Virus record (IMG/VR): IMGVR_UViG_3300031950_000001
Coordinates: 1-64,000 of that record
DNA length: 64,000 nt
Origin: a virus
Direction: 5' to 3' (one strand)
Shown here: piece after piece, positions 4,397 through 39,285 of the stretch
Layout of the letters: the number at the start of each line of letters is the position of its first letter
How positions within the stretch are numbered: the stretch's first letter is position 1
The notes under the pieces: generated by a model
Databases searched by the model: none
The model's input: the letters and a program-made list of their open reading frames with translations, nothing else
Told to the model about the DNA's origin: nothing
Position numbers and translations under genes: made by a program

Positions 4397-5112
4397 CCGA
4401 TTGGACGCCCAAAACCGGAAAAGCCGAATGGCATCTTACTTATAGATGCAATCTGCGGTGCGTCGGTTGCAATCGGCTCACCCACTTGTTTCCCAATCTC
4501 GATATTCCGGATATGACTCTAGATGACGCAGCACGATTCTGTAGAGAAGGTCCGAAATTCGGGTTTCATACAATCATCATTATCGGCGGCGAACCAACGC
4601 TTCATCCCGATTTTTTAAGTTTTGTGAAATTAGCCCGGAAGCATTTTCCGACGGTTCAACTGTTTTCGAACGAGTATACCGAAGATACCCGGCTTTTGGT
4701 AAAATGGGCCGTTGCCCAAGGAGTCATAAAAGTTCATTCAGCGAAGACCACATCATGTGTCCATCATATTTTGGATCAATGTGTCGCCCCCGTCGATTGC
4801 GGTATTCAGCGCGAGCCTTGCCGGTTTTGTTCGTGCTATCCTGGTGCTTGCGGCATTTCTGTTGATTCGCTCGGTTATACGATGTGCTGTTGTGGGGGTG
4901 CTGTTGATACAGCGCTCGGACTAAACGCTCGCGCAAAACAATTAAGTCAGCTTTTTAATAACGATTTTGCAAAACGGCAATTGGACGCGATGTGCTCGAG
5001 ATGTGGCTTTGATATGGGCATCTATACGCAACACGGTCATCTTGTCGAACGTCATTGTGGTGTTCCGATGTCAAAAACATGGATCGAGGCATGGAAAAAA
5101 CGCGGCATTTAA
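4393..5112 (+). CDS. Radical SAM protein
   Basis: CNLRCVGC (CxxxCxxC), GGEPTLHP and a Cys-rich C-terminal region. Confidence 0.9.
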   Translation: MTDWTPKTGKAEWHLTYRCNLRCVGCNRLTHLFPNLDIPDMTLDDAARFCREGPKFGFHTIIIIGGEPTLHPDFLSFVKLARKHFPTVQLFSNEYTEDTRLLVKWAVAQGVIKVHSAKTTSCVHHILDQCVAPVDCGIQREPCRFCSCYPGACGISVDSLGYTMCCCGGAVDTALGLNARAKQLSQLFNNDFAKRQLDAMCSRCGFDMGIYTQHGHLVERHCGVPMSKTWIEAWKKRGI

Positions 5113-5178
5113 AGATGGGAAGGATTTTTAGTTAAGAGCACTTGAATTTTTTAACTGTTAATTGGTAGACTAAAAGAC

Positions 5179-5285
5179 GAAAGGCCGGCCAGAGTAACAA
5201 GGCTATCGTTTTGGAGGGACGGTCCCTCCAGCCGATCGAACCACAAAGCCCGATCCTTTTGCCCTGCTCTGGCCGGCCTTTTTTG
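5179..5285 (+). terminator. Long imperfect hairpin with T-tract (terminator or small RNA)
   Basis: aaaggccggccagag ... ctctggccggccttt inverted repeat followed by Ts. Confidence 0.55.
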
Positions 5286-5387
5286 TTTAACTCTTTACGA
5301 CAAAGGAGAAGCGTATGACGAATTGAAAAAGTTACAATGACGGCAATGGACAGGGTAAGAAAGGTTTTTTGACAAGGAGGAGTTGCT

Positions 5388-5618
5388 GTGCTCATGCTCA
5401 GCCGTAGGACCAATCAGTCGATCATCTTAAAGGTTGGTGACATCCGTATCGAGGTTCTCGTTGCCGAAATTGAGGCCGGTAGGTACGGCCGTCGAGGAGG
5501 CCTGGTCAAGCTGGGAATAGACGCCCCTAAAGACACCGTCGTTATCTACCGAAAAGAGCTCGAAGAAAGGAATAGCAAGCCTTCGGAGCCGCAGCCAGCC
5601 AGCGAACCTGCGACTTAA
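5388..5618 (+). CDS. csrA: Carbon storage regulator CsrA/RsmA family RNA-binding protein
   Basis: MLMLSRRTNQSIIL...VKLGIDAPKDTVVIYRKEL matches the CsrA pattern; AGGAGG RBS upstream. Confidence 0.85.
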   Translation: MLMLSRRTNQSIILKVGDIRIEVLVAEIEAGRYGRRGGLVKLGIDAPKDTVVIYRKELEERNSKPSEPQPASEPAT

Positions 5619-5637
5619 TTTAAAAAAGACAATAACA

Positions 5638-5686
5638 AATAAGCCGGGACTGGCAAGACTCTTGCTCGTCCCGGCTTATTTTTTAG
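5638..5686. terminator. Intrinsic terminator between convergent genes
   Basis: aataagccgggac...gtcccggcttatt hairpin followed by TTTTAGCTA. Confidence 0.75.
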
Positions 5687-6403
5687 CTATTTCTCTTTTT
5701 CAGCTTCCACCATGTTTTTAAAGCTCATGAACGTGGCTTTGTCCTGCGCGTACGCCGTCATCATGGCAATGGCATATTCAGCCGCCTTATCCATCTTATA
5801 CCTCTGCGCGCAGTCGATAAATCGCTGAAACTCTTCAAGCGTGTCCAAATCGGCTCTATCGGCTTTGGCTTTCGCAACAGCGTAAATGGCGTCCATCATC
5901 GCCTTATCATTCCGCCACCGGTTCATGACATCATAGTTATTCTCGACATCGTACATGTAGTTAATTATCTTCGGCACCAGGATATATTGTTCTGCGTCGC
6001 ACAATTCTTTAACGAACGTTTTGACCTTCTCGGCAAACATCAAGCTATAGCCTATTCTCAATAGGCAAATATCGGCCGTAGCAACGGCCACTTCATAAAC
6101 CGACGGCGGTCGATACGTGAGTATATCAAATACCCCCGTTGCCATAGCCGTTACAATACGGCTAAAGTCGGTTACCCGACTTTGCCAGAAATCGTTCGTC
6201 ATGACGTTGATAGCCGCCATAAGCCGATTCATCATCCCCTCGCCTACGGGATGGCCTAGTATCTCTTCTAGTTCGGCCTTAATGGCCGCATATTCCCCGT
6301 CCAGAACATTAGGCCCGTACTTTTCGGCTAACGCCAGATAAAGCATGGGAGGGGTGGCTTCCGGGTCTTCGAAAATGGCAACAATCTTAGCGTCGTTTGG
6401 CAT
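5687..6403 (-). CDS. Hypothetical protein
   Basis: Long ORF; likely start MPNDAK at 6403. Confidence 0.7.
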   Translation of the reverse strand: MPNDAKIVAIFEDPEATPPMLYLALAEKYGPNVLDGEYAAIKAELEEILGHPVGEGMMNRLMAAINVMTNDFWQSRVTDFSRIVTAMATGVFDILTYRPPSVYEVAVATADICLLRIGYSLMFAEKVKTFVKELCDAEQYILVPKIINYMYDVENNYDVMNRWRNDKAMMDAIYAVAKAKADRADLDTLEEFQRFIDCAQRYKMDKAAEYAIAMMTAYAQDKATFMSFKNMVEAEKEK

Positions 6404-6419
6404 GGAAGGGAAACCTTTC

Positions 6420-6809
6420 TTAGAAGACTTTGAGCTCCAAGAGCCTCGTAATACCGTTAATATCAAAGAGCCTTGCCTCTAAAGTGGGCGGAATCTCGTC
6501 GGCAAATTCGTTGTCATGAATATCATACCACTTTTGGGGTACGCCGTTTACAAATAAGGTAGCCCATCGATTGTCTGCAATGCCCAATTTAACATCGGCC
6601 TTTTTGTCGAGAGCCTCAAGAATGGCGTCTTTGAACTTTTTAAAGATAATCTTAACCGCCGTTTCGTCATATCGGGAGGCAATAAAGACAAGCGAGATGA
6701 GGACGGATTTTTCGGTTTCCGTGAGTTTGGAATAGTCTTCGTTAAAGCCCAAAAGAATGCAAATCTCCACAAGCTGCTTACGTTTGATGGGAATAAGCCG
6801 CTTTTGCAT
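6420..6809 (-). CDS. Hypothetical protein
   Basis: ORF with likely start MQKRL after an AAAGGAG RBS. Confidence 0.65.
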   Translation of the reverse strand: MQKRLIPIKRKQLVEICILLGFNEDYSKLTETEKSVLISLVFIASRYDETAVKIIFKKFKDAILEALDKKADVKLGIADNRWATLFVNGVPQKWYDIHDNEFADEIPPTLEARLFDINGITRLLELKVF

Positions 6810-7070
6810 TGAGGGGTCTCCTTTGGGGGATACTTTCATTATACTGGAGACCGAACTGGAATTGGGCTGGAGGATTTGGTCTATTGGCAGTATGGATTGG
6901 CCGTTCGTACGAAATTTGATTCCGGAATCAAATTTGGGGCTAAAGAATCGGGAATTTCATGGCATTTAAGCATGAGCTGGGCGACCAGCCTTTACCACCT
7001 CGGCCAACCCCGCCTGGCCGGGTGGTAAGGACCGGAAAAGGCGGGGAACCTCCTAAAAAGGAGGAGGAAC

Positions 7071-7301
7071 ATGTTTATCATCATCATGGACGGTCGCGGC
7101 CGCTACTGGGCTTGCAGCCCAGTTAGCGACCGCGAGGCCGACCTTTGGCGGCTTGTCGGCCGGCCGCCAAAGGTCGGCCAGATCCTGGAGGCTCCGCAAG
7201 GGGCCTCCAGGATGCTGAAACGGCTCGGGTACACCCGGGTCAACCGGGTACCCGAGCCGTTGAGACCCGATCACCTATGGGCCCTTGAGGCCCTAGGGTG
7301 A
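7071..7301 (+). CDS. Hypothetical early protein
   Basis: Strong AGGAGG RBS; follows the promoter motif and precedes a terminator. Confidence 0.7.
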   Translation: MFIIIMDGRGRYWACSPVSDREADLWRLVGRPPKVGQILEAPQGASRMLKRLGYTRVNRVPEPLRPDHLWALEALG

Positions 7302-7308
7302 TCGGGGG

Positions 7309-7364
7309 CCGGAGGCGGGGGAATGGCCGGCACAAAGAAACCCCCGCCTCCGGTTTTTTAGCTA
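7309..7364 (+). terminator. Intrinsic terminator
   Basis: ccggaggcggggg...cccccgcctccgg followed by TTTTTTAGCTA. Confidence 0.8.
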
Positions 7365-7501
7365 TTTCTGTTTTTTATCCGTCGGGAACCGGCGGCGGAC
7401 ATCGTCGTCCTTATGGTCTGCGAAAGCATCTTTCTTTTTTAGAGTTGATAAGTTTAGAATCCTGGCTTTGTAGTATAATTTATTTCTCATCGCTTTTCCC
7501 A

Positions 7502-7678
7502 GCCCCGACCGCTCTCGGGTTCAGCCCTTCGCCGGGCTAAGATTATTGCCTGTCGTGGCTGAGCTGCTGCCCGTCCACAGGAAGACTGGCTCCGGGCTGG
7601 CGGTTAACCGCAGAGAGCCGTCGGGGCACTGCAAGGGGAGGAAGGTCTGCCGGCCCCTTCCTCCCCCGCTTTTTTTTA
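7502..7678 (+). ncRNA. Candidate structured small RNA
   Basis: TATAAT at ~7474. The 5' gccccgac..ctctc pairs with 3' gagag..gtcggggc, followed by a GC hairpin and T-tract. No RBS-led ORF. Confidence 0.45.
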
Positions 7679-7891
7679 ACCTAAAAGTTCCGTTCGATTT
7701 GTGGCATTTAAATATGGAGCTCAAAATCTAGCCCATATTGGGCTAGATTTGGGCTTCTTTTTACTTTTTTTTTTTTCTTTCGCTACAAAAAAAAGACGGT
7801 TTAGCCTTGCCCGATTTTTTCCCGCCAATCGGGAGTAAGGCTTGTTAGTGAACGGCGGGGTGTTTTTTAGTTTTTTTTAAGGAGGTGTGTT

Positions 7892-8686
7892 ATGAAGTTA
7901 CGTGTCCAGTTCAACGATCAGGCCAAGGCTTATCCAGCATTGCTGACGGATCACGAGAAGGAATTTGTACCAGCGTTCGTAAAATTTATTTTCTGGAACG
8001 ACGAGGGGGTACAGATTCGACCAGCCCCTGATGATGGGCTGCATCTGTTACCCCATAAGATTGCGAATCTAAAACGCCATGTCAATTTATCTTCATGGAG
8101 TTATAGTGTTGCTGAACACGGACTCGTCGTTTTAAGCTGGGATCCGGTCAGCAAATCTAAGTGCCATCAGGTAAAGCTCCCGTCCCGTATGGCACTATAT
8201 GACGTGATTCAAGAGCTCAATCCTCCGGCATATGCCCGGAAAGGAGCTCAGCAATTAGTGGAGCAATATAAGGAAGAGGGCCATCAAACAGTTGAATGGT
8301 ATGTTGCCGATGGCCTTGATACAGCCCTCATATTAAAGAAGAAAGGAGATACGGATTTATTAGCCCAAATATACGATTCTGAGGTTGACGAAAACCCGGC
8401 CATTCGGCTCAATAACATCGGCCTTTGGCCGGTTCGCGAAATGACAATAACGAAATTATTCAGTTATGAAACAATCGAACCGCCTTTGTACGACGAAATT
8501 GTCAATAGACGATTCAAAGGGCGGGAGTTTTGCACCCTGTTCTGGCTCCGATGGAACGGAGTCAAAAATGGGGTGATTACACGAGATACGAAAGTATTAG
8601 CATATTTAGCCGAGCATCAACAGCAATCAGGGGACACGGAGGTCGTCATACCTGAAGGCTGGTATATGATTAAACCCATTGCGTAA
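7892..8686 (+). CDS. Hypothetical protein, paralog 1 of a tandem pair
   Basis: AAGGAGG RBS; highly similar to 8852-9646. Confidence 0.85.
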   Translation: MKLRVQFNDQAKAYPALLTDHEKEFVPAFVKFIFWNDEGVQIRPAPDDGLHLLPHKIANLKRHVNLSSWSYSVAEHGLVVLSWDPVSKSKCHQVKLPSRMALYDVIQELNPPAYARKGAQQLVEQYKEEGHQTVEWYVADGLDTALILKKKGDTDLLAQIYDSEVDENPAIRLNNIGLWPVREMTITKLFSYETIEPPLYDEIVNRRFKGREFCTLFWLRWNGVKNGVITRDTKVLAYLAEHQQQSGDTEVVIPEGWYMIKPIA

Positions 8687-8851
8687 CGAAAAATTCATCC
8701 TGCTGAGGTTAAAACTACTTAGATAGATATCCTGGGAAGACCTGTCTCTCTCACTGAGGGGCAGGTCTTCCCTCTTTTTTTAGAGATGGTTAGGGTACGT
8801 GTATACTTGGTAGTTTTTTGTAACCTTTTTTTCCTTTTAAGGAGGTACTTT

Positions 8852-9646
8852 ATGAAGTTACGCTTAGAGCTCAACGACCAAAACATTGCTTACCCTGCGC
8901 TGTTGACCAATCATGATCAAGATTTTGTTCCTGCTTTTGTAAAATTTATCTTTTGGGATGACGAGGGGGTCCAGATTCGACCGGCCCCCGATGATGGTAG
9001 GCATTTATTGCCCCACCAAGTTTTGGACTTTAAACGTCATGTTAATCTATCATCGTGGAGCTACATGGTAGCCGAACAAGGACTCGTCATTTTGACGTGG
9101 GACCCGATCAGCAAGTCAGGATGTCATAGTGTTAAGGTCCCGGATAAGGCGGTCCAATATGACATCGTTCAGGAGCTCAACCCGCCAGCGTATGCCCGTC
9201 AAGGGGCTCAGCAGCTGGTGGAGCGATATAAAGAAGAGGGCTATCAAACAGTTGAATGGCGTGTTGCAGGCGGCCTTGATACGGCCCTCATTTTAAGGAA
9301 AAAGGATACTCCGGCTTTATTCGCCGCCATAAACGTTTTTGAAACCGATCAAGATCCGGCCATTAGACTCGATAACATCGGCCTTTGGCCGGTCCATGAG
9401 ATGGACGTGCGAAAACTATATCGCCTCGAAACACTCACACCGCCCTGGTATGAAAACGTTGAGAGCCGCCGGTTCAAGGGGCGGGAGTTTAGTACCCTAT
9501 TCTGGCTCCGATGGAACGGAGTCAAAGATGGGGTGATCACAAAAGAGACAAAAGTATTAGCCTATTTGATGGCGCAACAGAAGCATTCAGGCCGCACGGA
9601 GGTCAGCATACCTGAAGGCATGTATGTAATTAAGCCGCTAACATAA
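8852..9646 (+). CDS. Hypothetical protein, paralog 2 of a tandem pair
   Basis: Start MKLRLE after AAGGAGG; colinear paralog of 7892-8686; own terminator follows. Confidence 0.85.
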   Translation: MKLRLELNDQNIAYPALLTNHDQDFVPAFVKFIFWDDEGVQIRPAPDDGRHLLPHQVLDFKRHVNLSSWSYMVAEQGLVILTWDPISKSGCHSVKVPDKAVQYDIVQELNPPAYARQGAQQLVERYKEEGYQTVEWRVAGGLDTALILRKKDTPALFAAINVFETDQDPAIRLDNIGLWPVHEMDVRKLYRLETLTPPWYENVESRRFKGREFSTLFWLRWNGVKDGVITKETKVLAYLMAQQKHSGRTEVSIPEGMYVIKPLT

Positions 9647-9842
9647 GAAGTCAATCCCCTGGGGTCAAAAAATAACCAATCCGAGGGAAGACCCTCCCTC
9701 CCTGAGGGAGATCGTCTTCCCTCTTTTTTAGCTATTCCAGCTTAAAATATAATAGCTTCAAGCTGCTACGACTTCTTTTACTCGCCGAACGTAGGACCGG
9801 CTTCGATTAGTGCGGGTTTATGCTTTTTCGGAAAGGTCGGTT

Positions 9843-10157
9843 ATGGTCTTTGTAATTAGCTCACCCGTTCTAACAATGCATGGTATCTATTACTTCAAGT
9901 CAATCGATCTTGAGGAGGCCAAACAACTTCTCTCGGGGGAATTCGTATCTGCTATTAGCAACCGAACCGCTGCTAAGGTACTTAGCCATTTGCTTGGGAT
10001 TTACATCCCAGCCCGTAAGGGTAAGATTGGTATGGCCCCCGGTGATAAGGCTGTTGTTTTCCGGCTCCGAACCCCTCTCCCCAAGAACTGGGTTCCTAGC
10101 CAAGGGAAGATGGCAGACATTTTGTATGATCTTGATCTATTAGTCCGGACGAACTAG
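9843..10157 (+). CDS. DUF1874/AcrIII-1-like paralog with degenerate active site
   Basis: Aligns with 10375-10689, but SAVGH becomes SAISN and RLPEG becomes PLPKN. Confidence 0.75.
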   Translation: MVFVISSPVLTMHGIYYFKSIDLEEAKQLLSGEFVSAISNRTAAKVLSHLLGIYIPARKGKIGMAPGDKAVVFRLRTPLPKNWVPSQGKMADILYDLDLLVRTN

Positions 10158-10374
10158 GTGCCATTTACTGCGAGCTCTTTCCCTTCCTGAGCCCCGGCGA
10201 AAACCGGGGACTTTTTTTTGTCGGAACCACGCTAAAAAAAAGTCGCCAAATACGGCATTTAAATATGGCCTGGGCGTCCAGGCCGCTGCTCCGATTTTTT
10301 TACCCGCCGAAAGTCGGAGCTGCGATGCGAAGAAAAAGGGCGGGTGATTTTTTTTTCGTTTAAGGAGTTTTTTT

Positions 10375-10689
10375 ATGTTATTTGTACTCAACACCCCGGT
10401 TCTCACTAGCCACGGTATCTTCAAATTCGCCCCACTGTCTGTTGATGAGGCCAAAGCGCTGCTTGCTGGGGGCTTTCAATCCGCGGTTGGCCACGCGGCC
10501 ACCGCGGAAGTAATGACCGGTCTATTGGGGATTCAAATCCCCGTAGACCGGGGCCAAATTTTTATGCAGCCCGGCGACCGGGCTGTCGTGTTTCGGTTAT
10601 TGACCCGGCTACCGGAGGGCCGGGTCCTGAACCGGGAGGAGCTGGAGGCCCTCCCGTATGAAATTGGGCTCTTGACCCGGCTGGATTAG
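10375..10689 (+). CDS. acrIII-1: AcrIII-1 family viral ring nuclease (DUF1874, STIV B116/YddF-like)
   Basis: SAVGH..TA, (N/D)R..I, GD.A.VF.L..RLPEG..L..EEL signature; 104 aa. Confidence 0.85.
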   Translation: MLFVLNTPVLTSHGIFKFAPLSVDEAKALLAGGFQSAVGHAATAEVMTGLLGIQIPVDRGQIFMQPGDRAVVFRLLTRLPEGRVLNREELEALPYEIGLLTRLD

Positions 10690-10987
10690 GATTCCAGACC
10701 GGGTCAGTAGGGGAGGCCTTCTCGTTTTTTCCCTCGGACGAGAAGGCCTCCCCAAAAAAAGAAGAGGAATCCCTTCCCGTTCTCCCCTCGACCGGGAAGG
10801 GCGGCCTCTTCTTTTTTTTTTTTAGCTATAGATAGCCGACAAACAGGGCAATTAAAGTATTATATTAATAAGGGCATTTAATATTGGGAGCCTAATGGTT
10901 AGGCTCCGGCCTCAATTTTTTACCCCGCCGGAAATTGAGGCCATACGTAAATGGCGGGTTGGCCACTTTTTTAAGGAAGGGTTCGCT

Positions 10988-11134
10988 ATGGCATTTTACG
11001 TTTTGCTTGGTCTCGTTGTTGGCGGCACTATTGCCGCCGCGATGGGCGGTAACCCCGCGGCCGCAATCCGCGGGGCTATCGCGTTTACGATTCTGAGCTG
11101 GCTCGCGTTCTCAGCAACGCGACGCCGGCTCTAA
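10988..11134 (+). CDS. Small two-helix membrane protein (48 aa)
   Basis: MAFYVLLGLVVGG...WLAFSATRRRL; purine-rich RBS, promoter motif and terminator. Confidence 0.7.
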   Translation: MAFYVLLGLVVGGTIAAAMGGNPAAAIRGAIAFTILSWLAFSATRRRL

Positions 11135-11405
11135 AAGTTATATTATTTTCGCGTTAAAAAAATTAAAAAATCTCGGACGAAAGCCCTCTCCCCCGCTGAG
11201 AGGGCTTTCATTTTAGCCGTTCTTTCGTTAAATTTTGATTCCGGAATCAAATTTTTTTCGCGGGTATCCGATCCAGCAGTTAATTATTTTAGCCTTCAGG
11301 CTTTCCCTAATATAACGCCTTTGTCCGGCTTCTTCCTCGCCGGTCGGATAAAGGCGCGTTGGCACTTGGCGAGGAACGTCTTTCTTTGAAGAAAGGAGTT
11401 TGGTA

Positions 11406-11822
11406 ATGGCGTCCCAAGTTTTAGCCAGTCCCAAAGGTGCGCAGGTCATCGAACAGACTTTGGACAAGTATATGACCCAATTTGGGACGGAGATGTCGTA
11501 TTTTGAGGACGACGGCCAGTATTTTATCTTGGGTCCGAAGTCGATCTGTCGTGGTAGCCACATTCTTATTTCAGTCGGCTGTAAGGGTGGAAACATCATC
11601 CTTTCCACCGACGAGCCGTTGAAACGGCTCAAGAAGTCGTCCCTTTATAAGGAATGCCAAACCATGATCGAGATCATATTGGCGAAGCTTAAGGTACGGC
11701 AGAAGGGCGACATGCTAGTTGTTGCTACAAAGCCGGATAACTTCAGCAACGGACTCTCTCGAATGCTTCGAGCCGTTATATTCTTGGACTTACTCGAATC
11801 GTTGAAACCTTACTTCAATTAG
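11406..11822 (+). CDS. Hypothetical protein
   Basis: GAAAGGAG RBS; 138-aa ORF. Confidence 0.7.
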   Translation: MASQVLASPKGAQVIEQTLDKYMTQFGTEMSYFEDDGQYFILGPKSICRGSHILISVGCKGGNIILSTDEPLKRLKKSSLYKECQTMIEIILAKLKVRQKGDMLVVATKPDNFSNGLSRMLRAVIFLDLLESLKPYFN

Positions 11823-11838
11823 TAGAAAGGAGGCGAAA

Positions 11839-12015
11839 ATGAGTCGTAAAGGTGAGCGCGTTAAAGAGTTTCTATTTCGGTTTTCGATTGGTTTTTTGTC
11901 AGCCAATGTCTATCTCGCACTTGCACGCGATGATTGGCCCCTTGCCTCGACAATAATTCTGATAATAGCATGGGCGATTGGATACAAATACTGGAAGAAA
12001 GCCGAGTGCAAGTAG
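11839..12015 (+). CDS. Small two-helix membrane protein (58 aa)
   Basis: Hand translation MSRKGERVKEFLFRFSIGFLSANVYLALARDDWPLASTIILIIAWAIGYKYWKKAECK; AGGAGG RBS. Confidence 0.7.
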   Translation: MSRKGERVKEFLFRFSIGFLSANVYLALARDDWPLASTIILIIAWAIGYKYWKKAECK

Positions 12016-12099
12016 AACCCTAAAAAAAGGGCCGGGTTTGGTCAGCCAAAACTGCCAGACCCGGCCCCTGTGTTTTTTTAGAACGAAGGAGTCGCAAAA

Positions 12100-12240
12100 A
12101 TGCGAATTTTGCTTGTTGGGGTTGCGTGTTTGTTAAGCGGAATTATTGGTGCGCTTTACTGCTTCGAGCTGTGGCACATGGTGCTATTAGGGCTGGCTAC
12201 GCTTGCTGCAATTAGCTTTGCGATTACTAAAGTTGATTAA
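12100..12240 (+). CDS. Small two-helix membrane protein (46 aa)
   Basis: MRILLVGVACLLSGIIGALYCFELWHMVLLGLATLAAISFAITKVD; AAGGAG RBS. Confidence 0.7.
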   Translation: MRILLVGVACLLSGIIGALYCFELWHMVLLGLATLAAISFAITKVD

Positions 12241-12347
12241 CCTTATAAACTTTGTCGTCTTGTAGTCTAATGAGCTTGCAAAAATTTTGATTCCGGAATC
12301 AAAAACAGCCGGAGCTAAATCTTTTACCGTTTTAAGGCGTTTAATGA

Positions 12348-12497
12348 CGGTGATCGCGATCCCTCCTCTCCTACCGCTGGGAGAGGACGGGAATCGTGAT
12401 CACTACGCAGGTCAAGGGGAGCACACCGGTCTACCTGCGAGTATGCGGGTTACCGAGAACCCCAGCCATTACCAGCAACCGGTATGGACTTTTTTTT
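12348..12497 (+). ncRNA. Structured RNA family, divergent short member (or 5' leader of the next gene)
   Basis: 5' hairpin nearly identical to the 12881 unit; has ACGCAG, AGTA..GAA and a GACTTTTT end. Confidence 0.5.
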
Positions 12498-12514
12498 GAA
12501 AGGGAGAGTGGAAA

Positions 12515-12679
12515 ATGGTGGACATTGGTTTGTGGTTTCTGATGTTGGCCGGTGCGGCCGCTACCCGCGAGTTCATTGCGGATGGCGACCTTGCCATGGC
12601 ACATGCAACAACCGTCGCCATGATCGTTATGGCGTTTGTTGCACTAATTTATCGACTGATCCGCAAAGAAGGCTCCTAG
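12515..12679 (+). CDS. Small two-helix membrane protein (54 aa)
   Basis: MVDIGLWFLMLAGAAATREFIADGDLAMAHATTVAMIVMAFVALIYRLIRKEGS; purine-rich RBS. Confidence 0.7.
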   Translation: MVDIGLWFLMLAGAAATREFIADGDLAMAHATTVAMIVMAFVALIYRLIRKEGS

Positions 12680-12880
12680 CCCTACCCCATGAATAAGGCG
12701 ATTTCGAGGGTGCTGAAAGCCTAAACCCTTATTGGCAACGCGGCGTGCGCAAGCTGCAAGCGCACCGCGGTAAAGACGGCACGATTTATTTCACGCTGCC
12801 TGCAGAAGCAATGGTCGACTTTGAAAAAGGCTCCACTTCGGCCGAAGCTAAATCTTTTGCCATTTAAAGGCATTTAATGA

Positions 12881-13090
12881 CGGTGATCGCGATCCCACCT
12901 CTCCTACCGCGGGGAGAGGGCGGGAATCGTGATCACTACGCAGGTCATCCGCCGCTCCGGAGGGAGTGGCGGATGAGTGGCGTCCGAAGTCGCCGCCGAA
13001 AGGTACCCGGCGGCGGCTGAGGTCAATACGGGCCACGGCCGGGCCCGGAAACCCGTCTATCCTTGGCCGGATGGATCGGGACTTTTTTTA
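12881..13090 (+). ncRNA. Structured ncRNA family member A
   Basis: Promoter-to-T-tract unit with no RBS-led ORF. Conserved linkers CGCAG / GTGGCGTCCGAA / GAGGTCA..TAC / GGAAAC / GACTTTT separate variable hairpins. Confidence 0.7.
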
Positions 13091-13174
13091 GCTAGCGTGG
13101 TAAGGATCATAGGCACTCATTTTTTAGGACTGGCCGACGGCTAAAGATTCGCCGATATTGCGGCATTTACATAT

Positions 13175-13390
13175 GGCCCGGGCGTCTAATGCTCCTTGGG
13201 GCGCCCGGGCCGTTTGTAAAAGGAGGTTTTTTAAAAGCTCTTTGAAACGGGTCGCGACCCCGGCGACCTAAAATAATCGGAGGGGCGCCCCTCTGCGGAG
13301 GGGCTGGCTGTCAGGTCTCGCCCACACCTGACGGCCCATAGTCGAAATCCAGCCCTGGCAAGGCTGGGAGCGATTATGAAGTTTTTTTTA
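13175..13390 (+). ncRNA. Candidate structured RNA, unrelated to members A-C
   Basis: Promoter motif, several GC hairpins, ends in T-tract+AG; no credible ORF. Confidence 0.4.
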
Positions 13391-13450
13391 GCCATTGACA
13401 ACGCTGCTTAACCCACCTAAAGATTTGTCAGTTTTAAGGCATTTAATTGT

Positions 13451-13725
13451 GTGGCGCCGCACAACCGTCTTCCTCCCCTGCCGCTGAGGTGGGGGTCGTG
13501 GCGGCTCCCGGGGTTTTCCGGACACCCCGTGGAGGAACCCGGACGAGGGGGGAAACGCGGCGCCTGCGCAGTCCGTCCATACAGTCGGTCCGGACGACTG
13601 TTGGACGGGTGGCGCCCGAAGCATCCGTCGCAACGCGACGGGTGCAGAGGTCATCTACCGGACTCGTGAGAGCACCGGGAAACTCGCTCTGGTCTCCCCG
13701 TCGGCCGAGCGAGACTTTTTTTTAG
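13451..13725 (+). ncRNA. Structured ncRNA family member B
   Basis: Same linkers as A and C; shares a 5' domain GTGGCGGCTCC..GGAGGAACC(C)GGACGAGG with C. Confidence 0.7.
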
Positions 13726-13912
13726 CTAGCGAGCCCTTTTTTGGTCAATGCCCTATTAAGGGATTTTTTTTACGTTTCCGCACAGAAAAAAAAAGATAAT
13801 TTTGCAGTTCGGCTCGTGCTTAAATATAGACAGGACCGTCCATGTTTTTTCCGGAGCGGTCCGGAAGGCGATTCTGTCCTGGGGTCTTCCTTTTTTTAGG
13901 AGGAAACAAAAA

Positions 13913-14062
13913 ATGGACGACACCGATCTATGGGGTCTGACGGGATTCCTAGCCGCGTTAGGCTGCTACGGGGCCCTCAACGACATTGTGCCTCTAGCTA
14001 TAGCCGCGACGCTAATCATCATCATCGTGGCCATGTTTAAGCTATTCAAGAAAAATAAATAG
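13913..14062 (+). CDS. Small two-helix membrane protein (49 aa)
   Basis: MDDTDLWGLTGFLAALGCYG...AMFKLFKKNK; AGGAGG RBS; conserved 5' leader hairpin. Confidence 0.7.
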   Translation: MDDTDLWGLTGFLAALGCYGALNDIVPLAIAATLIIIIVAMFKLFKKNK

Positions 14063-14097
14063 AAAAAAATTCGTCAATTTTTTAAGGCATTTAATAA

Positions 14098-14368
14098 CGG
14101 GAGCCGCGATCCCGCATCGTTCCCGTCCGGCCAAACGGGAACGTGGCGGCTCCTTCGGACAATAGGGCGGTCCGAAGGAGGAACCGGACGAGGAGGAACT
14201 ACGCGGCTCCATTGCGCAGATCATCCCTTGTTTCGTCGCCCTACGAACAAGGGGTGAGTGGCGCCCGAACCTCGCGGCATCGAGGGGTGCTGCGAGGCGA
14301 GGTCAGTACTGGCTCGGCCGGGCCAGGAAACCTGTCAGCTTCCTCGTCGGCTGAACAGGACTTTTTTA
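14098..14368 (+). ncRNA. Structured ncRNA family member C
   Basis: Same linkers; AGTA-C[stem]G-GAA loop-E-like motif; ends GACTTTTTTAGCTA. Confidence 0.7.
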
Positions 14369-14566
14369 GCTATCTAGCAGAATTTTCTTGTGTAGCCTTT
14401 TTTTGGCTATTTGGGTATTTTCCCCTTTCTGTTTCCAAGATCGAAAGCCGCTACATACGGCTGTTAGCATTGATAGCTAAAAACGGGACCGCAAGGGTTT
14501 TTTCCGGATGACCGGAAAGGCGGTTCCGTCTTTTTGTTTCTCTTTTTTTAGAAAGGAGAGTAAAAG

Positions 14567-14731
14567 ATGAGGATGGGGGTGGAGTGTGTCAAGGCTATTG
14601 CATACGGGCTTGTATTTTACGCACTGACGCTTTTATGCGTCTGGACGGCCGTAATGTCCTATTGGCCTCTTACGATTATCACCGGCATGGGACTGGCTGG
14701 GGTTACCTACAAAATTGCAAAGACACCCTAA
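14567..14731 (+). CDS. Small two-helix membrane protein (54 aa)
   Basis: MRMGVECVKAIAYGLVFYALTLLCVWTAVMSYWPLTIITGMGLAGVTYKIAKTP; GAAAGGAG RBS. Confidence 0.7.
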   Translation: MRMGVECVKAIAYGLVFYALTLLCVWTAVMSYWPLTIITGMGLAGVTYKIAKTP

Positions 14732-14920
14732 GTTTCCACCTTTATGAGGCCGTCCTGAATATGTAGGTTCAAGAGCGAAAAGCTGGGGTCGCTTAATTGG
14801 CCGAAATCGGCTAAAGATTAGCCGATTTCTTGGCATTTACAAATGGACGGGACCGCCAGGGTTTCCGGAGCGGTCCGGAGGCGGTTCCGTCCTGGTCCCT
14901 TTTAAGAAAGGGGAAACAAA

Positions 14921-15073
14921 ATGAGGGACTACATCCTAGCCGGTGTTTGGATTGCCGCGTTCGTGGCCGCCCTAGCGGCCGCGACGCAATGCTGGGTTGA
15001 AGGAAACTGGACTGCCGCGATCGCGGTGGCAGTCATTTTCGGCGGCCTCACCTACTATATAGAAACGAGGTGA
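14921..15073 (+). CDS. Small two-helix membrane protein (50 aa)
   Basis: MRDYILAGVWIAAFVAALAAATQCWVEGNWTAAIAVAVIFGGLTYYIETR; promoter, leader hairpin, RBS and terminator present. Confidence 0.7.
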   Translation: MRDYILAGVWIAAFVAALAAATQCWVEGNWTAAIAVAVIFGGLTYYIETR

Positions 15074-15121
15074 GGCCCCACACCACCCCCTGAACAAGGA
15101 GGTTCAGGGTGGTGGGTTTTT

Positions 15122-15333
15122 TTAGTTATTAGTTAGTATCCTTGTCCCGAGCTTCCCATCCAGGTATTCAAACACCCTTTTCCAATTCCCCCAGATCATG
15201 TCATCATCAACTAGTTCATGCAACCGCTTTCTTGCTGACTCTATAATAAAAACCCTTAAATCTTCCTCATATGCCAATTTCGTAGCGTAATAGGCCATTT
15301 CGTCTAAATCATTTGCTAGAAACCCTGTTACTC
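15122..15333 (-). pseudogene. Duplicated 3' fragment of the GT4 gene at 15774-16841
   Basis: Encodes VTGFLANDLDEMAYYATKLAYEEDLRVF...ILTNN, nearly identical to the end of the full gene, with the same terminator. Confidence 0.85.
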
Positions 15334-15337
15334 GATT

Positions 15338-15412
15338 GAGGTCAGTACGAGCCACGATCATACCAGGAAAAAAACCTGTCAGCTTCCTCGTCGTCTGAAG
15401 AGGACTTTTTTT
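15338..15412 (+). ncRNA. 3' half-copy of the structured ncRNA family
   Basis: GAGGTCAGTAC...GGAAA..cctgtcagcttcctcgtcg..GACTTTTT, like member C. Confidence 0.5.
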
Positions 15413-15564
15413 AAACTAGTATGGTCAGAAGCAACCCCCATCTTGAGGATTGGCCAACGGCTAAAGATTAGCCGCTTTCGCGGCATTTACAAATGGACGG
15501 GACCGCCAGGGTTTCCGGGCGGCCGGAAGGCGGTCTCGTCCTGGGCTCCGAAAAGGAGGGAGAA

Positions 15565-15720
15565 ATGAGCAACATTTCGGTCCTGATTGTACTGCTCGTA
15601 CTTTCCATCGGCGCCGTCGCAACGACGGCGCCGATGGGACAGTTTTCCGCCGGGCTGATGACCGCGTCCGCGGTCATCAGCTTGGCGGCGCTCGGCGAGG
15701 CTGTAGCGCGAAAGCTATAG
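15565..15720 (+). CDS. Small two-helix membrane protein (51 aa)
   Basis: MSNISVLIVLLVLSIGAVATT...EAVARKL; AAGGAGG RBS. Confidence 0.7.
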   Translation: MSNISVLIVLLVLSIGAVATTAPMGQFSAGLMTASAVISLAALGEAVARKL

Positions 15721-15773
15721 CCTCGCCGGTGAACCCACCCCCTGAACAAGGAGGTTCAGGGTGGTGGGTTTTT

Positions 15774-16841
15774 TTAGTTATTCGTCAGTATTCTTGTCCC
15801 GAACTTCCCATCCACGTATTCAAACACCCTCTTCCAATTCCCCCATATTACATTATCATCAACCAATTCATGCAATCGCTTTCTTGCCGACTCTATGATG
15901 AAGACCCTTAAATCTTCCTCGTATGCCAATTTCGTAGCGTAATAAGCCATTTCGTCTAGATCGTTCGCTAGAAACCCTGTTACTCCGTGTACGATCATCT
16001 CTTTCCAGCCCCAGTCGTTATGGGCTACTATAGCCACTCCTGTTGCCATAGCCTCTAGTCCAGCCCTTGACCAGTTTTCGTTTGCCTGGTCGCTGGCTTG
16101 TATCATACAGTGCAATTGGGACAAGAATTGCTGCGCTGTCTCAGCTCGGCTGGGTAGTACGGTAGCCCACGCGGGGGGTTTTCCTACTTTACGTTCTACT
16201 TCCTTGCTCCAAGCCATTATCCTTGCATGTATGGGGTGGATGATCCGTTCGTATAATCTCCAAGTCCCGCGATGGTACTTATCGGGTGCAGGTCGGCTAA
16301 TTCTTCCTACGACGAATGTTTCTCCTCTTTTATGTCGTAGGGGATTAAAGGGCCATTCATCTAATGCGAACGCTGCTCGTACTAAGAAGCCTTGTTCGTC
16401 GGTAACGCCGTATTCTTTTAGCTGAGGCATAAGAAGGTTTTGTTGAAACTGGCTCTGGAAGACATAGGCATCGAAGGGTTTTTGCATTCGGCTATAATGC
16501 CGCCGCTCTTCATCGAAGAGCCAGCACATGCAGCCTACCCAGATGATTTTGCAATCCATGCGTCGTAGGAGGTCTGCCGAGCGTAGGAATTCGCTGTTGC
16601 AGAAGGAAATAACAGGGGCGCCCCTAAGCTCGTTGAGGTCGAGGAGACGCGTAGGGCCGCTTACTTGAAGAGTTTGGCAGCCTATAGAATCGCACTTTGT
16701 GCGATATTCAGGCAGGGGCGCCCCCCACGTGGGGATGAGGGTGACTTCAAGTCCAAACTTCCTCCAGAGCTTAAGAGTGTGCCAGCACTCGGTATTAGCC
16801 CCACCAACATCGCCGGGATAACCAATGACAAAGATGCCCAT
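15774..16841 (-). CDS. Glycosyltransferase family 4 (GT-B fold)
   Basis: GGANTE, VGRISR...K and ENWSRAGLEAMATGVAIV...EMIVHGVTGFL motifs. Confidence 0.85.
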   Translation of the reverse strand: MGIFVIGYPGDVGGANTECWHTLKLWRKFGLEVTLIPTWGAPLPEYRTKCDSIGCQTLQVSGPTRLLDLNELRGAPVISFCNSEFLRSADLLRRMDCKIIWVGCMCWLFDEERRHYSRMQKPFDAYVFQSQFQQNLLMPQLKEYGVTDEQGFLVRAAFALDEWPFNPLRHKRGETFVVGRISRPAPDKYHRGTWRLYERIIHPIHARIMAWSKEVERKVGKPPAWATVLPSRAETAQQFLSQLHCMIQASDQANENWSRAGLEAMATGVAIVAHNDWGWKEMIVHGVTGFLANDLDEMAYYATKLAYEEDLRVFIIESARKRLHELVDDNVIWGNWKRVFEYVDGKFGTRILTNN

Positions 16842-17250
16842 AACGTCAAAACGAAGAAGACGGACAATAAGGGTACCTTCTCGAAATTTTGATTCTGGAA
16901 TCAATTATAACATTAGACGGTCTCTTTTTTACTGGCTAAATTATCTTTGGCCAAAGAAAGAAATAGAAAACGGTGGATGCCGTAATTCGCGCCTTTAACC
17001 TTATCACTACTTTTTTTTATAGTGTTGGACCTAATAAAAGACGTCTACAAGACAGTGGCTAATTCCTCTTGATCGCGATTCAACTCGTGGCTGCCGTCAG
17101 CTTTGGTTGGTTGCCGTGCTCCCAGGACTAGCCTTAATTTAGCTAAAGATTCGCCGGTTTCGCGGCATTTACAAATGGACGGGACCGCCAGGTTTCCGGA
17201 GCGGTCCGGAGGCGGTTCCCGTCAGGGTCGCCTTTAAAAGGAGAACAGAC

Positions 17251-17415
17251 ATGAGGCAACTGATGTTGGCCTTGGTCGGGTGTTGTGCCATCTTGGCCGC
17301 ATGGGCGGCCAAGAGTGGTACGTCCGAGACCGCGCACGTGGCCGCGATTTTCGCGGCCACGGGCGTGGCCACGATGCTCCTTGCCGAGGGGATCAGCGAG
17401 CTGCGCAAACGCTGA
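17251..17415 (+). CDS. Small two-helix membrane protein (54 aa)
   Basis: MRQLMLALVGCCAILAAWAAKSGTSETAHVAAIFAATGVATMLLAEGISELRKR; AAGGAG RBS. Confidence 0.7.
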   Translation: MRQLMLALVGCCAILAAWAAKSGTSETAHVAAIFAATGVATMLLAEGISELRKR

Positions 17416-17835
17416 TCCCCCCGGCCCACCCCCTGAACAAGGAGGTTCAGGTGTGGTGGGTTTTTTTAGGTAGTTTATAAGGAAAGGGGGTGTGGGATCG
17501 GTTGATCCCATCCCCCCTAAAAGAATATCCCCGCCGTCAATTTTTTGGGGCATTTAAATATGGAGATCCAAATTTAGCCCGAATATTAACTTCGTTTTTT
17601 TACTTATTTTTTTTCTTTAGCTACAAAAGACGGTTTTAGCCTTGCCCGATTTTTTCCGTGCCAGTCGAGGCAAAGGCTTGGTTCAATGGACGATGGGTAG
17701 AAGGTCAGTAGATACCCCAGACCGCCTTTCGGTGCGGCCACCCTGAGTCCTTAGAGACTCAGGGTGTGATGGGGGATTTTTTTTAGCTATTCGGCAATCG
17801 AGGTTCAGAAAAATTTGATTCCGGAATCAAATTTT

Positions 17836-21573: not shown

Positions 21574-24500
21574 ATGACAACGCCCGAACTTATCGACATA
21601 AGCGACGTTAAGACCATACGCCAGAGGATCTTCGACTCTGTGCGTAACGCGTTTTTATCAACTCCGGCTTATACGCAAGGGCCGTGGTCTATTGAAATCT
21701 CGGACGTCGACTATAAAGACTCGGAACCCGAAGAGGAGCTTCTTAGTCCTTTTTCACACAAAAAGGCTATCGTAACAAACGCAACCCTTGCTAGGGACCT
21801 TTACGGAACCATCAAGATCACGACTCCCGACGGCGTTATCAAAAAACGTACCCTTCTTGCCAAGGTTCCCTATCTTACCGACCGGGGCGTCTTTATTATT
21901 AATGGCGTTGAATACGCCATTACAAACCAGCAGCGCTTAAAGCCGGGTGTTTACGTACGGTTCCGTCAAACTGGGGAGCCTGAGGCTTTCATTAACCTTC
22001 CTGGGCATAAGACCCACCGCTACGTCCTTGATCCCAGAACGGGTATTTTCTACATTCAAGCCGGACAAGCCACATTCCGTCTTTATCCCATTCTTAAGGC
22101 GATGGGCGTTACCGACGAGGAAATACGTAACGCCTGGGGTGCTGACCTCTTTGCGCGCAATGCCGTCGAAAAATCAGACGACCTTCGGCGATTTGCAACA
22201 AGAATGTTCGGCTCTCCCGACGTCGATATTAGCCGAGAATTTACCCAAGTCCCGGTCGCAGCCGATGTGATGCGGCGTAATCTCGGTCTGATTCAAAACT
22301 ACCTTGATAAGCGCGCTGCGCTGGCCTCAACCGTCAAGATGATTCAGCTATTGCAAGGCCAAGCCAAAGAAGATGACCGGGACTCGATTGCCAATCAGCA
22401 GTTCCTGGGACCAGAGGATATCTTTGCCGACGGCGTGCCTATGAAAATGCGCCTTATTTTGCGCAATATCCTCTGGAAGGCCATGCGCAATCCCAAAAAA
22501 GAAATCATTCCCCCTCGACCGGCCCAGGCAATTATCGATCATGTTATCCGCGCCTCGGGTCTTATGTCGGCTCCTGCGGAGATCAACCCCGTCGAAATCT
22601 TGGACCACCTTTTCAAAGTAACCCGAATGGGGGAGGGCGGTATCGGTGCTACGGAAGCAATTCCATATTCGGCACGCGACGTCCATGCTACGCAATTCGG
22701 CTTTATCGATCCTGTTACTACGCCCGAATCCCTAAGAGTGGGGGTAGATACGCGGTTTACCGTTACTGCCAAGCGTGGTGCCGACGGTCTCCTCTATATT
22801 CCTGCCGTCGATGTAAAGACCGGAAAGAAGACCTGGCTAAACTCCGAGCAAACCGAAGACGTTACGATTGCCTTCCCAGGAGAACTTGAGACGGGCAGGA
22901 AGTTTGTTCGAGCCATTCATAAAGGCTCCGAAGCCATTGTTCCGCGCGATCAAGTAACGCATTATATTAAGGACGCTACGCACATCTTTGGTCCTTTGGC
23001 GTCCTTAATCCCTATGAAAAGCGCTTGCTTCCCGCAACGGGTTGCCATGGGAAGCCGTTTTATTACGCAAGCGCTTCCTCTTATTAATAGAGAAGTCCCC
23101 CTCGTTCAGTCCGTCGATGCTGAAGGCACACCTTTCGTTGCCAAATTTGGTCCGTATGCCGGTGCTGTTAAAAGCCCGTGCAAAGGAGTTGTGAGAAAGG
23201 TTACGCCCGACTTTATCGAAGTTTATGATTCTGACGCTAAAAAGACACGTAAGATTTGGATTCACAACAACACGCCCTATGCCCGGCAAACCGCCCTTTA
23301 TAACGAGCCTTTAGTAAAACCCGGCGATGTCATAAAACCGGGTCAACTATTGGCTTATAGCAATTTCACGGATCAAAACGGCAACCTTGCCATGGGCGTA
23401 AACGCCAAGATTGCCTATATGGCGACAGGCGATACGTATGAAGACGCCTTTGTCATCTCCGAATCCTTTGCCAAACGACTCACGGCTGAGAACCTATTCG
23501 TCTACGAACATAAACCCAGCGAAGGTTCTGGAAAACCCTTCTATGTCTCCCTTTTCCCCAATAAACTTACTTCCGAGGCCCTAGAACGATACACGGAAGA
23601 AGGGGTTGCCAAGCCTGGTACTGTTTTGTCAAAGGGCGATCCCATCGTTCTTAGCGTCAAAATGCTTCCCATTACAACCGCCAGGGCGTCCCATCGTATG
23701 TTTGTGGATGATAGCATCACATGGGATTATGACTCGCCTGGTATCGTGATTGCAGCAGGTAAGACCAAGGATGGTTATATCGCTATGGTAAAGTCCTTGT
23801 TTGAGACCCAACAAGGGGATAAGATCGCAGGCCAATATGGCAATAAAGGCGTTGTCATCATAAAGCCCGATAGCCAGATGCCGATCGGCGAAGACGGTAA
23901 GCCGGTCGATATCGTCGCGTCGCCGTTTATTATCTCTCGAGCCAATATTGGCCAAATCTACGAAGCACTCTTAGGTAAGGTTGCCAAAAAGCTGGGGCGG
24001 CCTATTTATGTCAAGGACTTCGAGAACGCCGACAAATTGCATCAGTACGTTACGGAGATGCTCAAAAAGCACGGGGTAAAGGATACCGAAGTCCTTACCG
24101 ATCCTGCTACCGGCAGGAAAATCCGGGCGCTTACCGGTTACGGCTACATCCTTCGGCTCTGCCATATTGCCGAAGATAAGCTTCAGGCCGTTGATGAAGC
24201 CATTGCGTCCAGCGTTGAAGATATTCCAACGGTAGGGGAAACAGGTAAAGCAAAACGACTCGGTCTATTAGAGCTTAATGCTCTATTGGCGCATGGCGCA
24301 TATGACACCATTACCGATGCCGCGCTCATCCGAGGACAGGCCAACGATGAAGCATGGCGCCAGTTTATGACTGGCTATAACCTTCCGCAGCCTAAAGTAC
24401 CCCACATTTGGCATAAGTTCGTAGCCCTATTAAGAGGGGCAGGCATTAATCCTATTCAAGAGCGGTCTGGAATTAGGCTTCTGGCGCTACGGGATAAGGA

Positions 24501-39000: not shown

Positions 39001-39285
39001 ATGCGAATTGTACTCGACAATAAAGAATTTGAATGTAAGAAGTTCGTCGTATTCGACAAGTTTGGCAACGCGGTCGCTGCCGGATATGATCATGCTGATG
39101 TCCTCGTGTTTGATACATGTGCCGGCCCCGATTTTCCGAAAATTCTCTCCATTGTTGGCTATCCAGATCGTCTTCCAACACAGATCATTGATACAAAACC
39201 ATTAATACCGGAGCTTTCTCCTATCAAGCCTGACACAGGTGCCGACCATGCAGGAAACGACCATTGGACAACTCTTAATTTCTAG
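39001..39285 (+). CDS. Hypothetical protein
   Basis: 94-aa ORF overlapping the start of the RNAP beta'C gene. Confidence 0.6.
   Translation: MRIVLDNKEFECKKFVVFDKFGNAVAAGYDHADVLVFDTCAGPDFPKILSIVGYPDRLPTQIIDTKPLIPELSPIKPDTGADHAGNDHWTTLNF

Follow-up and report, generated by a model that had tools for sequence, protein, structure and literature searches.

Phage-encoded structured RNAs are, to our knowledge, far less explored than phage proteins. Here we describe one family of them, located between positions 12346 and 15412 of IMG/VR record IMGVR_UViG_3300031950_000001, of which the first 64 kb (64,000 nucleotides (nt); the window) were analysed. The record is the complete genome of an uncultured thermophilic phage (144,055 bp, direct terminal repeats), and the family consists of three full copies (units A, B and C), a chimera (unit D) and a remnant (E). 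Units A, B and C are a real and, as far as comparison with Rfam shows, previously undescribed family of structured RNAs with an unusually well-defined architecture.

The nearest general class is that of the orphan structured phage non-coding RNAs (Rfam motifs and ~10,000 unnamed candidates; PMC10690425), which the family resembles in being an intergenic RNA gene that runs from promoter to terminator and is defined by covariation. It matches 0 of 4227 Rfam models, however, and is unusual in its three tandem paralogues with unrelated stems and in a two-domain fold with a kissing loop. RNA anti-CRISPRs (Racrs, solitary repeat units) are repeat mimics behind promoters, often beside acr genes (PMC10651486), and the present RNAs are likewise small phage RNAs with a strong promoter near an anti-CRISPR gene (PF08960 at 9810-10157); the ends of one 30-34-nt module are also those of a common CRISPR repeat family (UCAAUAC ... 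GGAAAC). Whereas a Racr is approximately one repeat near a promoter, this module lies inside a 210-280-nt fold, ~140 nt (A) or 200 nt (B and C) after the start rather than immediately behind the promoter, and its stem varies. With the CsrB/RsmZ sponges the family shares several paralogous small RNAs, linkers that contain GGA and the company of a CsrA-family gene (PF02599) in one genome, but few GGA are exposed here, the fold is compact with long GC stems, and there is no sequence similarity. Elaborate phage-encoded folds with loop-loop contacts are known from phi29 pRNA, ROOL and GOLLD; the present RNAs differ in having no Rfam match and no link to packaging genes and in being much smaller than ROOL or GOLLD, and the kissing loop of B and C is, unlike theirs, most simply intramolecular. 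Covarying target complementarity, the mark of a type I antitoxin or base-pairing small RNA, is absent, the matches being 6-10 nt long and lost in a variant leader. The leader position and alternative fold of a riboswitch or attenuator are not seen for A, B and C, and D alone lies in a leader.

The units and the promoter-like motifs that precede them are as follows.

12315..12345, plus strand: promoter-like motif of unit D, CTAAA-N-AAGGCGTTTAAT (repeat family D4)
12346..12497, plus strand: unit D, in which a 5' hairpin of the A type and ACGCAGGTCA are joined to a different 3' part ending in GACTTTTTTTT
12848..12878, plus strand: promoter-like motif of unit A
12879..13090, plus strand: unit A, a long 5' hairpin (12882-12937) and the 3' domain (12934-13087)
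13417..13447, plus strand: promoter-like motif of unit B
13448..13728, plus strand: unit B, a 5' four-way-junction domain (13448-13568) and the 3' domain (13562-13720)
14065..14095, plus strand: promoter-like motif of unit C, its upstream half degenerate (68% to the reference copy)
14096..14370, plus strand: unit C, a 5' four-way-junction domain (14096-14216) and the 3' domain (14210-14366), seed of model R1
15338..15412, plus strand: remnant E, with GAGGTCAGTAC, a decayed P4, GGAAAAAAAC, a C-type P5 and a U-run

Covariance model R1 was built from the 3' domain of unit C only (14210-14366, 50 base pairs). Its search finds A, B and E, with no other match in the window or the 144-kb genome, and the hits (12934-13087, 13562-13720 and 15296-15410) recover the units that a sequence-only reading of the window had placed there. 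Scores reach 91 bits for A and 73.5 bits for B under R1, and 138 and 134 bits, respectively, under a second model, R2; E scores 22.6 bits under R1, the orthologue of C in a variant phage (contig L103) scores 166 bits, and unit A has a minimum free energy of -131 kcal/mol. The layout given in that reading, RCGCAG-hairpin-GTGGCGYCCGAA-hairpin-GAGGTCA..TAC-hairpin-GGAAAC-hairpin-GACTTTTT, is exact in all three full units (the end being GACT7-8). No RNA class had been recognized in it, and none emerged here: Rfam 15, whose families include riboswitches, ribozymes, 6S, Y RNA, pRNA, tmRNA, T-box, HEARO, ROOL and GOLLD, gave 0 matches at gathering thresholds over the whole window, and at E ≤ 10 over 11800-16000 it gave weak chance matches to microRNAs and small RNAs, none of those inside the units exceeding one-third of the threshold. 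ARAGORN found 0 transfer RNA (tRNA) or transfer-messenger RNA (tmRNA) genes in the window and one tRNA-Met elsewhere in the genome.

The shared 3' domain of ~155 nt has four helical arms and invariant linkers, and its covariation is strong. When A, B and C are aligned under guidance of the model, 98% of cells are paired and 25 of the 50 pairs have changed on both sides; in a control in which the 3' partners were slid by 1-3 columns, pairing fell to 35-48% and compensatory pairs to 1-6. Adding the orthologues and minor strain variants (nine distinct sequences) leaves 97% of cells paired and raises the compensatory pairs to 29/50, bearing out the proposal that hairpin sequences differ while their pairing is kept. 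The particular exchange of ACGC/GCGU for GCGC/GCGC that had been singled out is a real compensatory change (columns 5/63; GC in five sequences, AU in four). Between B and its orthologue B' there are 13 compensatory, two one-sided and one disrupted pair, and between C and C' two, six and none. A second 5' domain common to B and C, also noticed from the sequence, is upheld by compensatory changes in 7 of its 28 pairs.

Because 35 of 490 pairs are G-U, which would read as A-C mismatches on the other strand, the fold exists on the plus strand only. The units had been called free of open reading frames (ORFs); mechanical ORFs of 92 and 122 amino acids (aa) in fact overlap B and C, but 1-2-nt indels between orthologues break these frames, and the nine between B and B' rule out coding.

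In the 3' domain, P1 is GCGC/GCGC (ACGC/GCGU in A) and joins P2 via a 3x3 loop, AGN/GUG. Directly after the P1/P2 arm, a CC/GG helix is joined to P3 via the loop GAA/NGA, which, judging from its letters, can form tandem sheared G-A pairs; the linker UMA(N)UA, P4, the linker GAAAC, the terminal P5 and the U-run follow. In unit A, for example, the parts read P1/P2, CC-GAA/NGA-GG with P3, P4, P5 and the U-run. Throughout, the stems drift freely and the internal loops and linkers are invariant. Two finer proposals failed against the alignment. A helix between GAGGUC and GACUUU is not supported: B' reads GAGGUA with no compensating change, and the GG sits in the invariant CC/GG helix. The AGUA of the suggested loop-E/sarcin-ricin bulged-G motif occurs in C only, with AAUA in A and C' and UCUA in B, so that this motif is not conserved.

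The 5' part of A and D is a long hairpin. That of B and C is a four-way junction made of a closing stem Pa, an arm Pb/Pc, an arm Pd and a purine-rich linker, GGAACC(N)GGACGAGGRGGAA. Two tertiary contacts between the 5' and 3' domains were considered.

13517..13523, plus strand: Pd apical loop of B, UCCGGAC, proposed kissing partner of 13588-13594
13588..13594, plus strand: P2 apical loop of B, GUCCGGA
14163..14169, plus strand: Pd apical loop of C, UAGGGCG, proposed kissing partner of 14237-14243
14237..14243, plus strand: P2 apical loop of C, CGCCCUA
14187..14196, plus strand: linker of the C 5' domain, GACGAGGAGG, candidate partner of the P5 loop at 14339-14348
13542-13551 with 13693-13702: equivalents in B of the linker/P5-loop contact

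The Pd loop matches the P2 loop of the other domain by seven Watson-Crick pairs in both B and C, a longer match than any other of the 15 loop pairs offers in either unit. With shuffled loops, a run of this length arose in 50/20000 trials for B and in 257/20000 for C. The variant phage retains the match (7 bp in B', 6 bp in C'). Since two unrelated sequences occupy the same loop pair, the contact is well supported, and there is good evidence from these complementarities that it would fold the RNA back on itself into a compact molecule. It was measured with a custom script, the MAFFT loop alignments being out of register; those of the J3/4-P4-J4/5 module were out of register too. A further possible contact joins the linker GACGAGGRGG to the unusually large P5 loop. 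Here 96.7% of cells are paired with one-sided changes only, so that covariation leaves it unconfirmed, and the chance level is 94/5000 for C and not significant for B.

Unit D, announced as a divergent copy, is so in part. It shares with A only the promoter, the 5' hairpin and ACGCAGGTCA (107 nt, 93% identical), and its 3' half, left unscored by R1 and R2, reads by eye GGUCUAC-hairpin-GAGAAC-hairpin-ACU8, which makes D either a chimera or a copy that has diverged very far. It runs directly into the ribosome-binding site of a peptide gene (12515-12679), of which it is probably the leader. E lacks a promoter and lies directly beside a truncated copy of the 3' end of a glycosyltransferase gene, and we infer that it is a dead remnant. 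A 251-bp duplicate (15083-15333 versus 15735-15985, 91%), comprising a terminator and the 3' end of the minus-strand glycosyltransferase gene, adjoins it.

The full units each lie behind CTAAA-N-AAGGCRTTTAAT, one form of the GGCRTTTA motif, which occurs at 13 sites from 5104 to 17549, on the plus strand in all. In fuller form it is GGCRTTTA(A/C)(A/T)..ATGG, often with CTAAAGATT 17-18 nt upstream (5104-17563), and it recurs at genome positions 79226 and 79543. No sigma-70-like match was found on the plus strand at the motif; presumably it is the RNA polymerase encoded by the phage itself that reads it. At their 3' ends the units have a 9-11-bp hairpin, AC, 6-8 U and usually AGCTAG, and then the next promoter; a scanner for sigma-70 promoters and simple terminators missed these ends because of loops longer than 8 nt and of the AC that separates hairpin and U-run. 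The suggestion that each unit mostly has its own promoter thus holds in the form of a phage-specific promoter-like motif before each full unit and a hairpin with a U-run behind it, and these signals, together with the G-U pairs and the indels, point to A, B and C being plus-strand RNA genes.

Contigs from metatranscriptomes of two studies cover D with its peptide gene (12303-12658), the inside of B (13479-13627), a neighbouring RNA (13198-13353) and a peptide leader. Parts of A and C have no such contig, although contig data are uninformative on an absence of transcription. These contigs hint at transcription, with which they are consistent, and fall short of proof.

The neighbouring RNA belongs to a second, unrelated structured RNA family (window 13176-13392; genome 79236-79480), which stands behind a CTAAAGATT..GGCATTTACA promoter. 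It has two copies in the genome and an orthologue in the variant phage (contig L049, ~3935-4145).

A covariance model and a search of phage metagenomes had been proposed at the outset. The model does find the paralogues. IMG/VR, JGI metagenomes and GTDB genomes were scanned for exact motifs, in some scans one of the 5' domain, and the matches were filtered with covariance models; beyond this phage, this yielded only the variant phage (overlapping contigs L049 and L103), other matches being by chance. The variant keeps A, B and C (A' 94%, B' 84% and C' 91% identity), whereas E, D with its peptide gene and one further peptide gene are missing from it. The RNA units had no blastn match among GenBank phages, R1 and R2 gave nothing significant on five contigs with a related RNA polymerase (G001-G005) or on seven contigs sharing the glycosyltransferase, and a search for further encoding contigs added only near-identical strains. 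Every occurrence found belongs to this phage or to one of its strain variants and comes from hot-spring or mat metagenomes.

In the closest relative, G001, whose RNA polymerase is 83% identical, the syntenic slot has the same flanking genes and holds two copies of a different ~230-nt structured RNA with the same kind of promoter (contig L034, that is G001:64000-82000, minus strand, ~4112-4366 and ~3057-3286). R2 gives these RNAs no score. The slot also holds two tRNA-Thr (L034 5326-5465) and a tmRNA (9529-9891; Rfam RF00023, 146 bits; tag AEQPLAIAA by ARAGORN), and a literature search on that tag as a clue to the host returned no match.

The phage encodes a multisubunit RNA polymerase, with Rpb2 and Rpb1 domains at 21574-25935 and Rpb1 domain 5 at 39239-41089. 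No close relative was found in GenBank, where the best RNA polymerase matches are 29-30% identical, and near-identical DNA comes from hot-spring and microbial-mat metagenomes of ~20 studies. The RNA units sit in an early-looking region that also holds a radical-SAM gene, glycosyltransferases and the following genes.

5388-5618: CsrA-family ORF, 76 aa (PF02599, 38 bits at 5391-5570; PDB CsrA matches, E=0.003)
9810-10157: AcrIII-1-type gene, PF08960 (STIV B116-like, AcrIII-1 family), E=4.6e-12
10375-10689: second AcrIII-1-type gene, matched to phrog_5063 only; 104-aa counterparts in strain contigs carry PF08960
12100-12240, 12515-12679, 13913-14062, 14567-14731, 14921-15073 and 15565-15720: six genes for two-helix hydrophobic peptides of 46-54 aa

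The AcrIII-1-type genes lie 2-3 kb upstream of the RNA units, and the CsrA-family ORF is behind the same promoter type as the units (site 5104). This ORF has a ~10-residue insertion in the beta-sheet region and a Pro/Glu-rich tail and retains the conserved block GIDAPK..V.IYRKE. The six peptide genes, which have no PHROG match, alternate with the RNA units along the region. Upstream of most of them the sequence holds a nested leader hairpin that is conserved, a T-run and, hiding the ribosome-binding site, a small hairpin, a layout reminiscent of that of tightly controlled toxic peptides. Strains differ by gain and loss of cassettes here, and one natural deletion variant (run X4, joint 13789>14856) is without one peptide-RNA-peptide cassette. 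As cassettes vary among strains and the relative carries a different RNA in the slot, the region is a fast-evolving accessory island whose self-contained cassettes encode peptides in some cases and RNAs in others.

Elsewhere in the window, near-matches to an unrelated probe recur every 51 nt at 30780-31403 on the minus strand; this 51-bp periodicity lies inside ORF 30574-31725 and marks its product as a protein of tandem 17-aa repeats. A conserved element end (...CTGCCGTGGTTTAGGCAGGTTTGGTAAACCAG) occurs five times (window 2060, 32298, 37138 and 46517, genome 88730), these being the right ends of IS607/TnpB-like mini-elements. These omega-RNA-like mini-elements were ruled out as kin of the RNA family, the sequences being unrelated.

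Conserved junctions with variable stems are the usual sign of RNAs recognized by shape and by proteins, as distinct from seed-pairing small RNAs. We favour, at a rough probability of 45%, the reading that A, B and C are trans-acting, protein-binding RNAs, decoys or scaffolds in host takeover or counter-defence. Protein binding is preferred because the internal loops and linkers are invariant while the stems drift, and because a tertiary contact is present; three paralogues under strong early promoters would fit a decoy or scaffold whose effect depends on dosage. The three units would then be early genes, independent of one another, each for a small RNA (~210-280 nt) with a compact fold, and the invariant loops and linkers of these RNAs would be contact sites for a host or phage protein. 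Acting in trans early in infection, they would titrate or redirect that protein as part of a host-takeover or anti-defence island with the AcrIII-1-type genes, the CsrA-like gene and the small membrane peptides, with D as a related leader of a peptide gene and E as a dead remnant.

Several points weigh against this. None of the analyses revealed a partner protein or a target, and the invariant linkers could equally suit base-pairing, catalysis or processing. The covariation is drawn from one phage species complex, with three paralogues and two haplotype groups, and the alignments used for the pair counts were fitted to the model. Signs of expression amount to a few contigs, which show no transcript ends and come from RNA libraries that can hold DNA, and one of them begins 43 nt before the predicted start.

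The J3/4-P4-J4/5 module (GGUCAAUAC-hairpin-GGAAAC, 30-34 nt) may instead copy a host CRISPR repeat and be bound by Cas6 and/or type III effector subunits, with the P5 hairpin (~36 nt) as a structured pseudo-spacer and the dead complexes complementing AcrIII-1; we regard such mimicry as unlikely. Thermotoga repeats read GTTTCAATACTTCCTTAGAGGTATGGAAAC (PMC5637354, Table 7), and with them A and C' share UCAAUAC, a central hairpin, terminal GGAAAC and a similar spacing, the shared ends being exactly the invariant linkers of the family. The PF08960 genes 2-3 kb upstream recall the position of Racrs near acr genes (PMC10651486), and D and the G001 RNAs, by eye, keep a similar 'GGUa.AUAC - hairpin - GAAC' module, although R2 leaves the latter unscored. 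The match is of 13 of ~30 nt, however, and to the repeat of Thermotoga; it was found after the fact among thousands of known repeats, with a rough chance estimate of ~0.1. The P4 stem is different in every paralogue, the module lies 150-230 nt beyond the start within a larger fold that mimicry leaves unexplained, and the 401 Chloroflexota and 401 Cyanobacteriota genomes sampled contained no arrays with such repeats and only single chance matches. A more elaborate version, which we think rather unlikely, makes the whole molecule a type III RNA anti-CRISPR. The GGUCAAUAC-hairpin-GGAAAC repeat mimic would capture Cas6 and/or tag-binding effector subunits alongside the AcrIII-1 ring nuclease, P5 would be a self-paired pseudo-spacer, and the kissing loop and tandem G-A loops would stabilize the decoy at high temperature.

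It is quite unlikely that the RNAs are CsrA sponges whose GGA motifs sequester the phage CsrA-like protein, or host CsrA, and so time the translation of early genes. The CsrA-family ORF shares their promoter type, GGAAAC is invariant and has a helix on either side, three to four GGA occur in the B and C 5' linker (GGAGGAACCGGACGAGGAGGAAC), and the ribosome sites of the peptide genes also read GGAGGAAAC or GGGGAAAC. Yet the 3' domain has a single invariant exposed GGA, GGA is not consistent in hairpin loops and is to be expected often in G/A-rich sequence, and the loop of P5 may engage the 5' linker in pairing. Known CsrB/RsmZ sponges are loose strings of GGA hairpins rather than compact kissing-loop folds, which also counts against a sponge.

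We hold it to be just as doubtful that the units are base-pairing regulators, antitoxin-like or anti-antisense, of the two-helix membrane-peptide genes with which they are interleaved. The alternation of RNA units with six peptide genes, the fusion of D to one of them and the leader hairpins that hide the ribosome site would suit such a role, as would an exact complementarity between CCGGAAACCC of unit A and GGGUUUCCGG in the bulge of the leaders (14859 and 15509). Leaders also contain GGTTTCC (14860, 15510 and 17191), and B and C hold both Shine-Dalgarno-like and anti-Shine-Dalgarno-like segments. Against these stand the shortness of the complementarity (6-10 nt) and its lack of covariation, a variant leader reading GGUCUUCC while the RNAs keep GGAAAC, and the absence of a genome-wide enrichment of GTTTCC (45 on the plus strand, 52 on the minus). 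What is conserved in the RNA is mostly structure and not seed, and the variant phage is without two peptide genes and yet retains A, B and C.

Cis-acting leaders, attenuators or riboswitches, or a new self-cleaving ribozyme, are very unlikely. Small ribozymes typically have conserved junction nucleotides, variable stems, multiple copies and a phage setting, all of which fit here, and D immediately precedes an ORF, with a terminator-like hairpin ahead of the ribosome-binding site. A, B and C, by contrast, end in a hairpin and U-run followed by a new promoter and no ORF; no alternative pairing opens P5, the sole long-range candidate pairing touching its loop and not its stem; and there was no Rfam riboswitch or ribozyme match even at E ≤ 10. 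Lastly, a protein-coding region or a DNA-level element (an origin, packaging or recombination site) is barely credible, for although the two mechanical ORFs lie over B and C and the region recombines, the orthologues break the frames, G-U pairs tie the fold to one strand, promoter and terminator features bracket the units and RNA-library contigs cover the region.

With a protein-binding role as the preferred reading, the main limits are an uncultured host and a narrow distribution. The fold is nonetheless defined well enough for probing, pull-downs and structure work, and its kissing loop exists in two natural, orthogonal sequence versions. The phage devotes ~1 kb of early-region sequence to a single elaborate fold in three paralogues and has at least one more RNA family, and a relative fills the slot with another RNA, tRNAs and a tmRNA. 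This pattern of paralogues, a second family and replacement within the slot suggests that RNA-based host manipulation or counter-defence evolves as fast as protein anti-defence genes.

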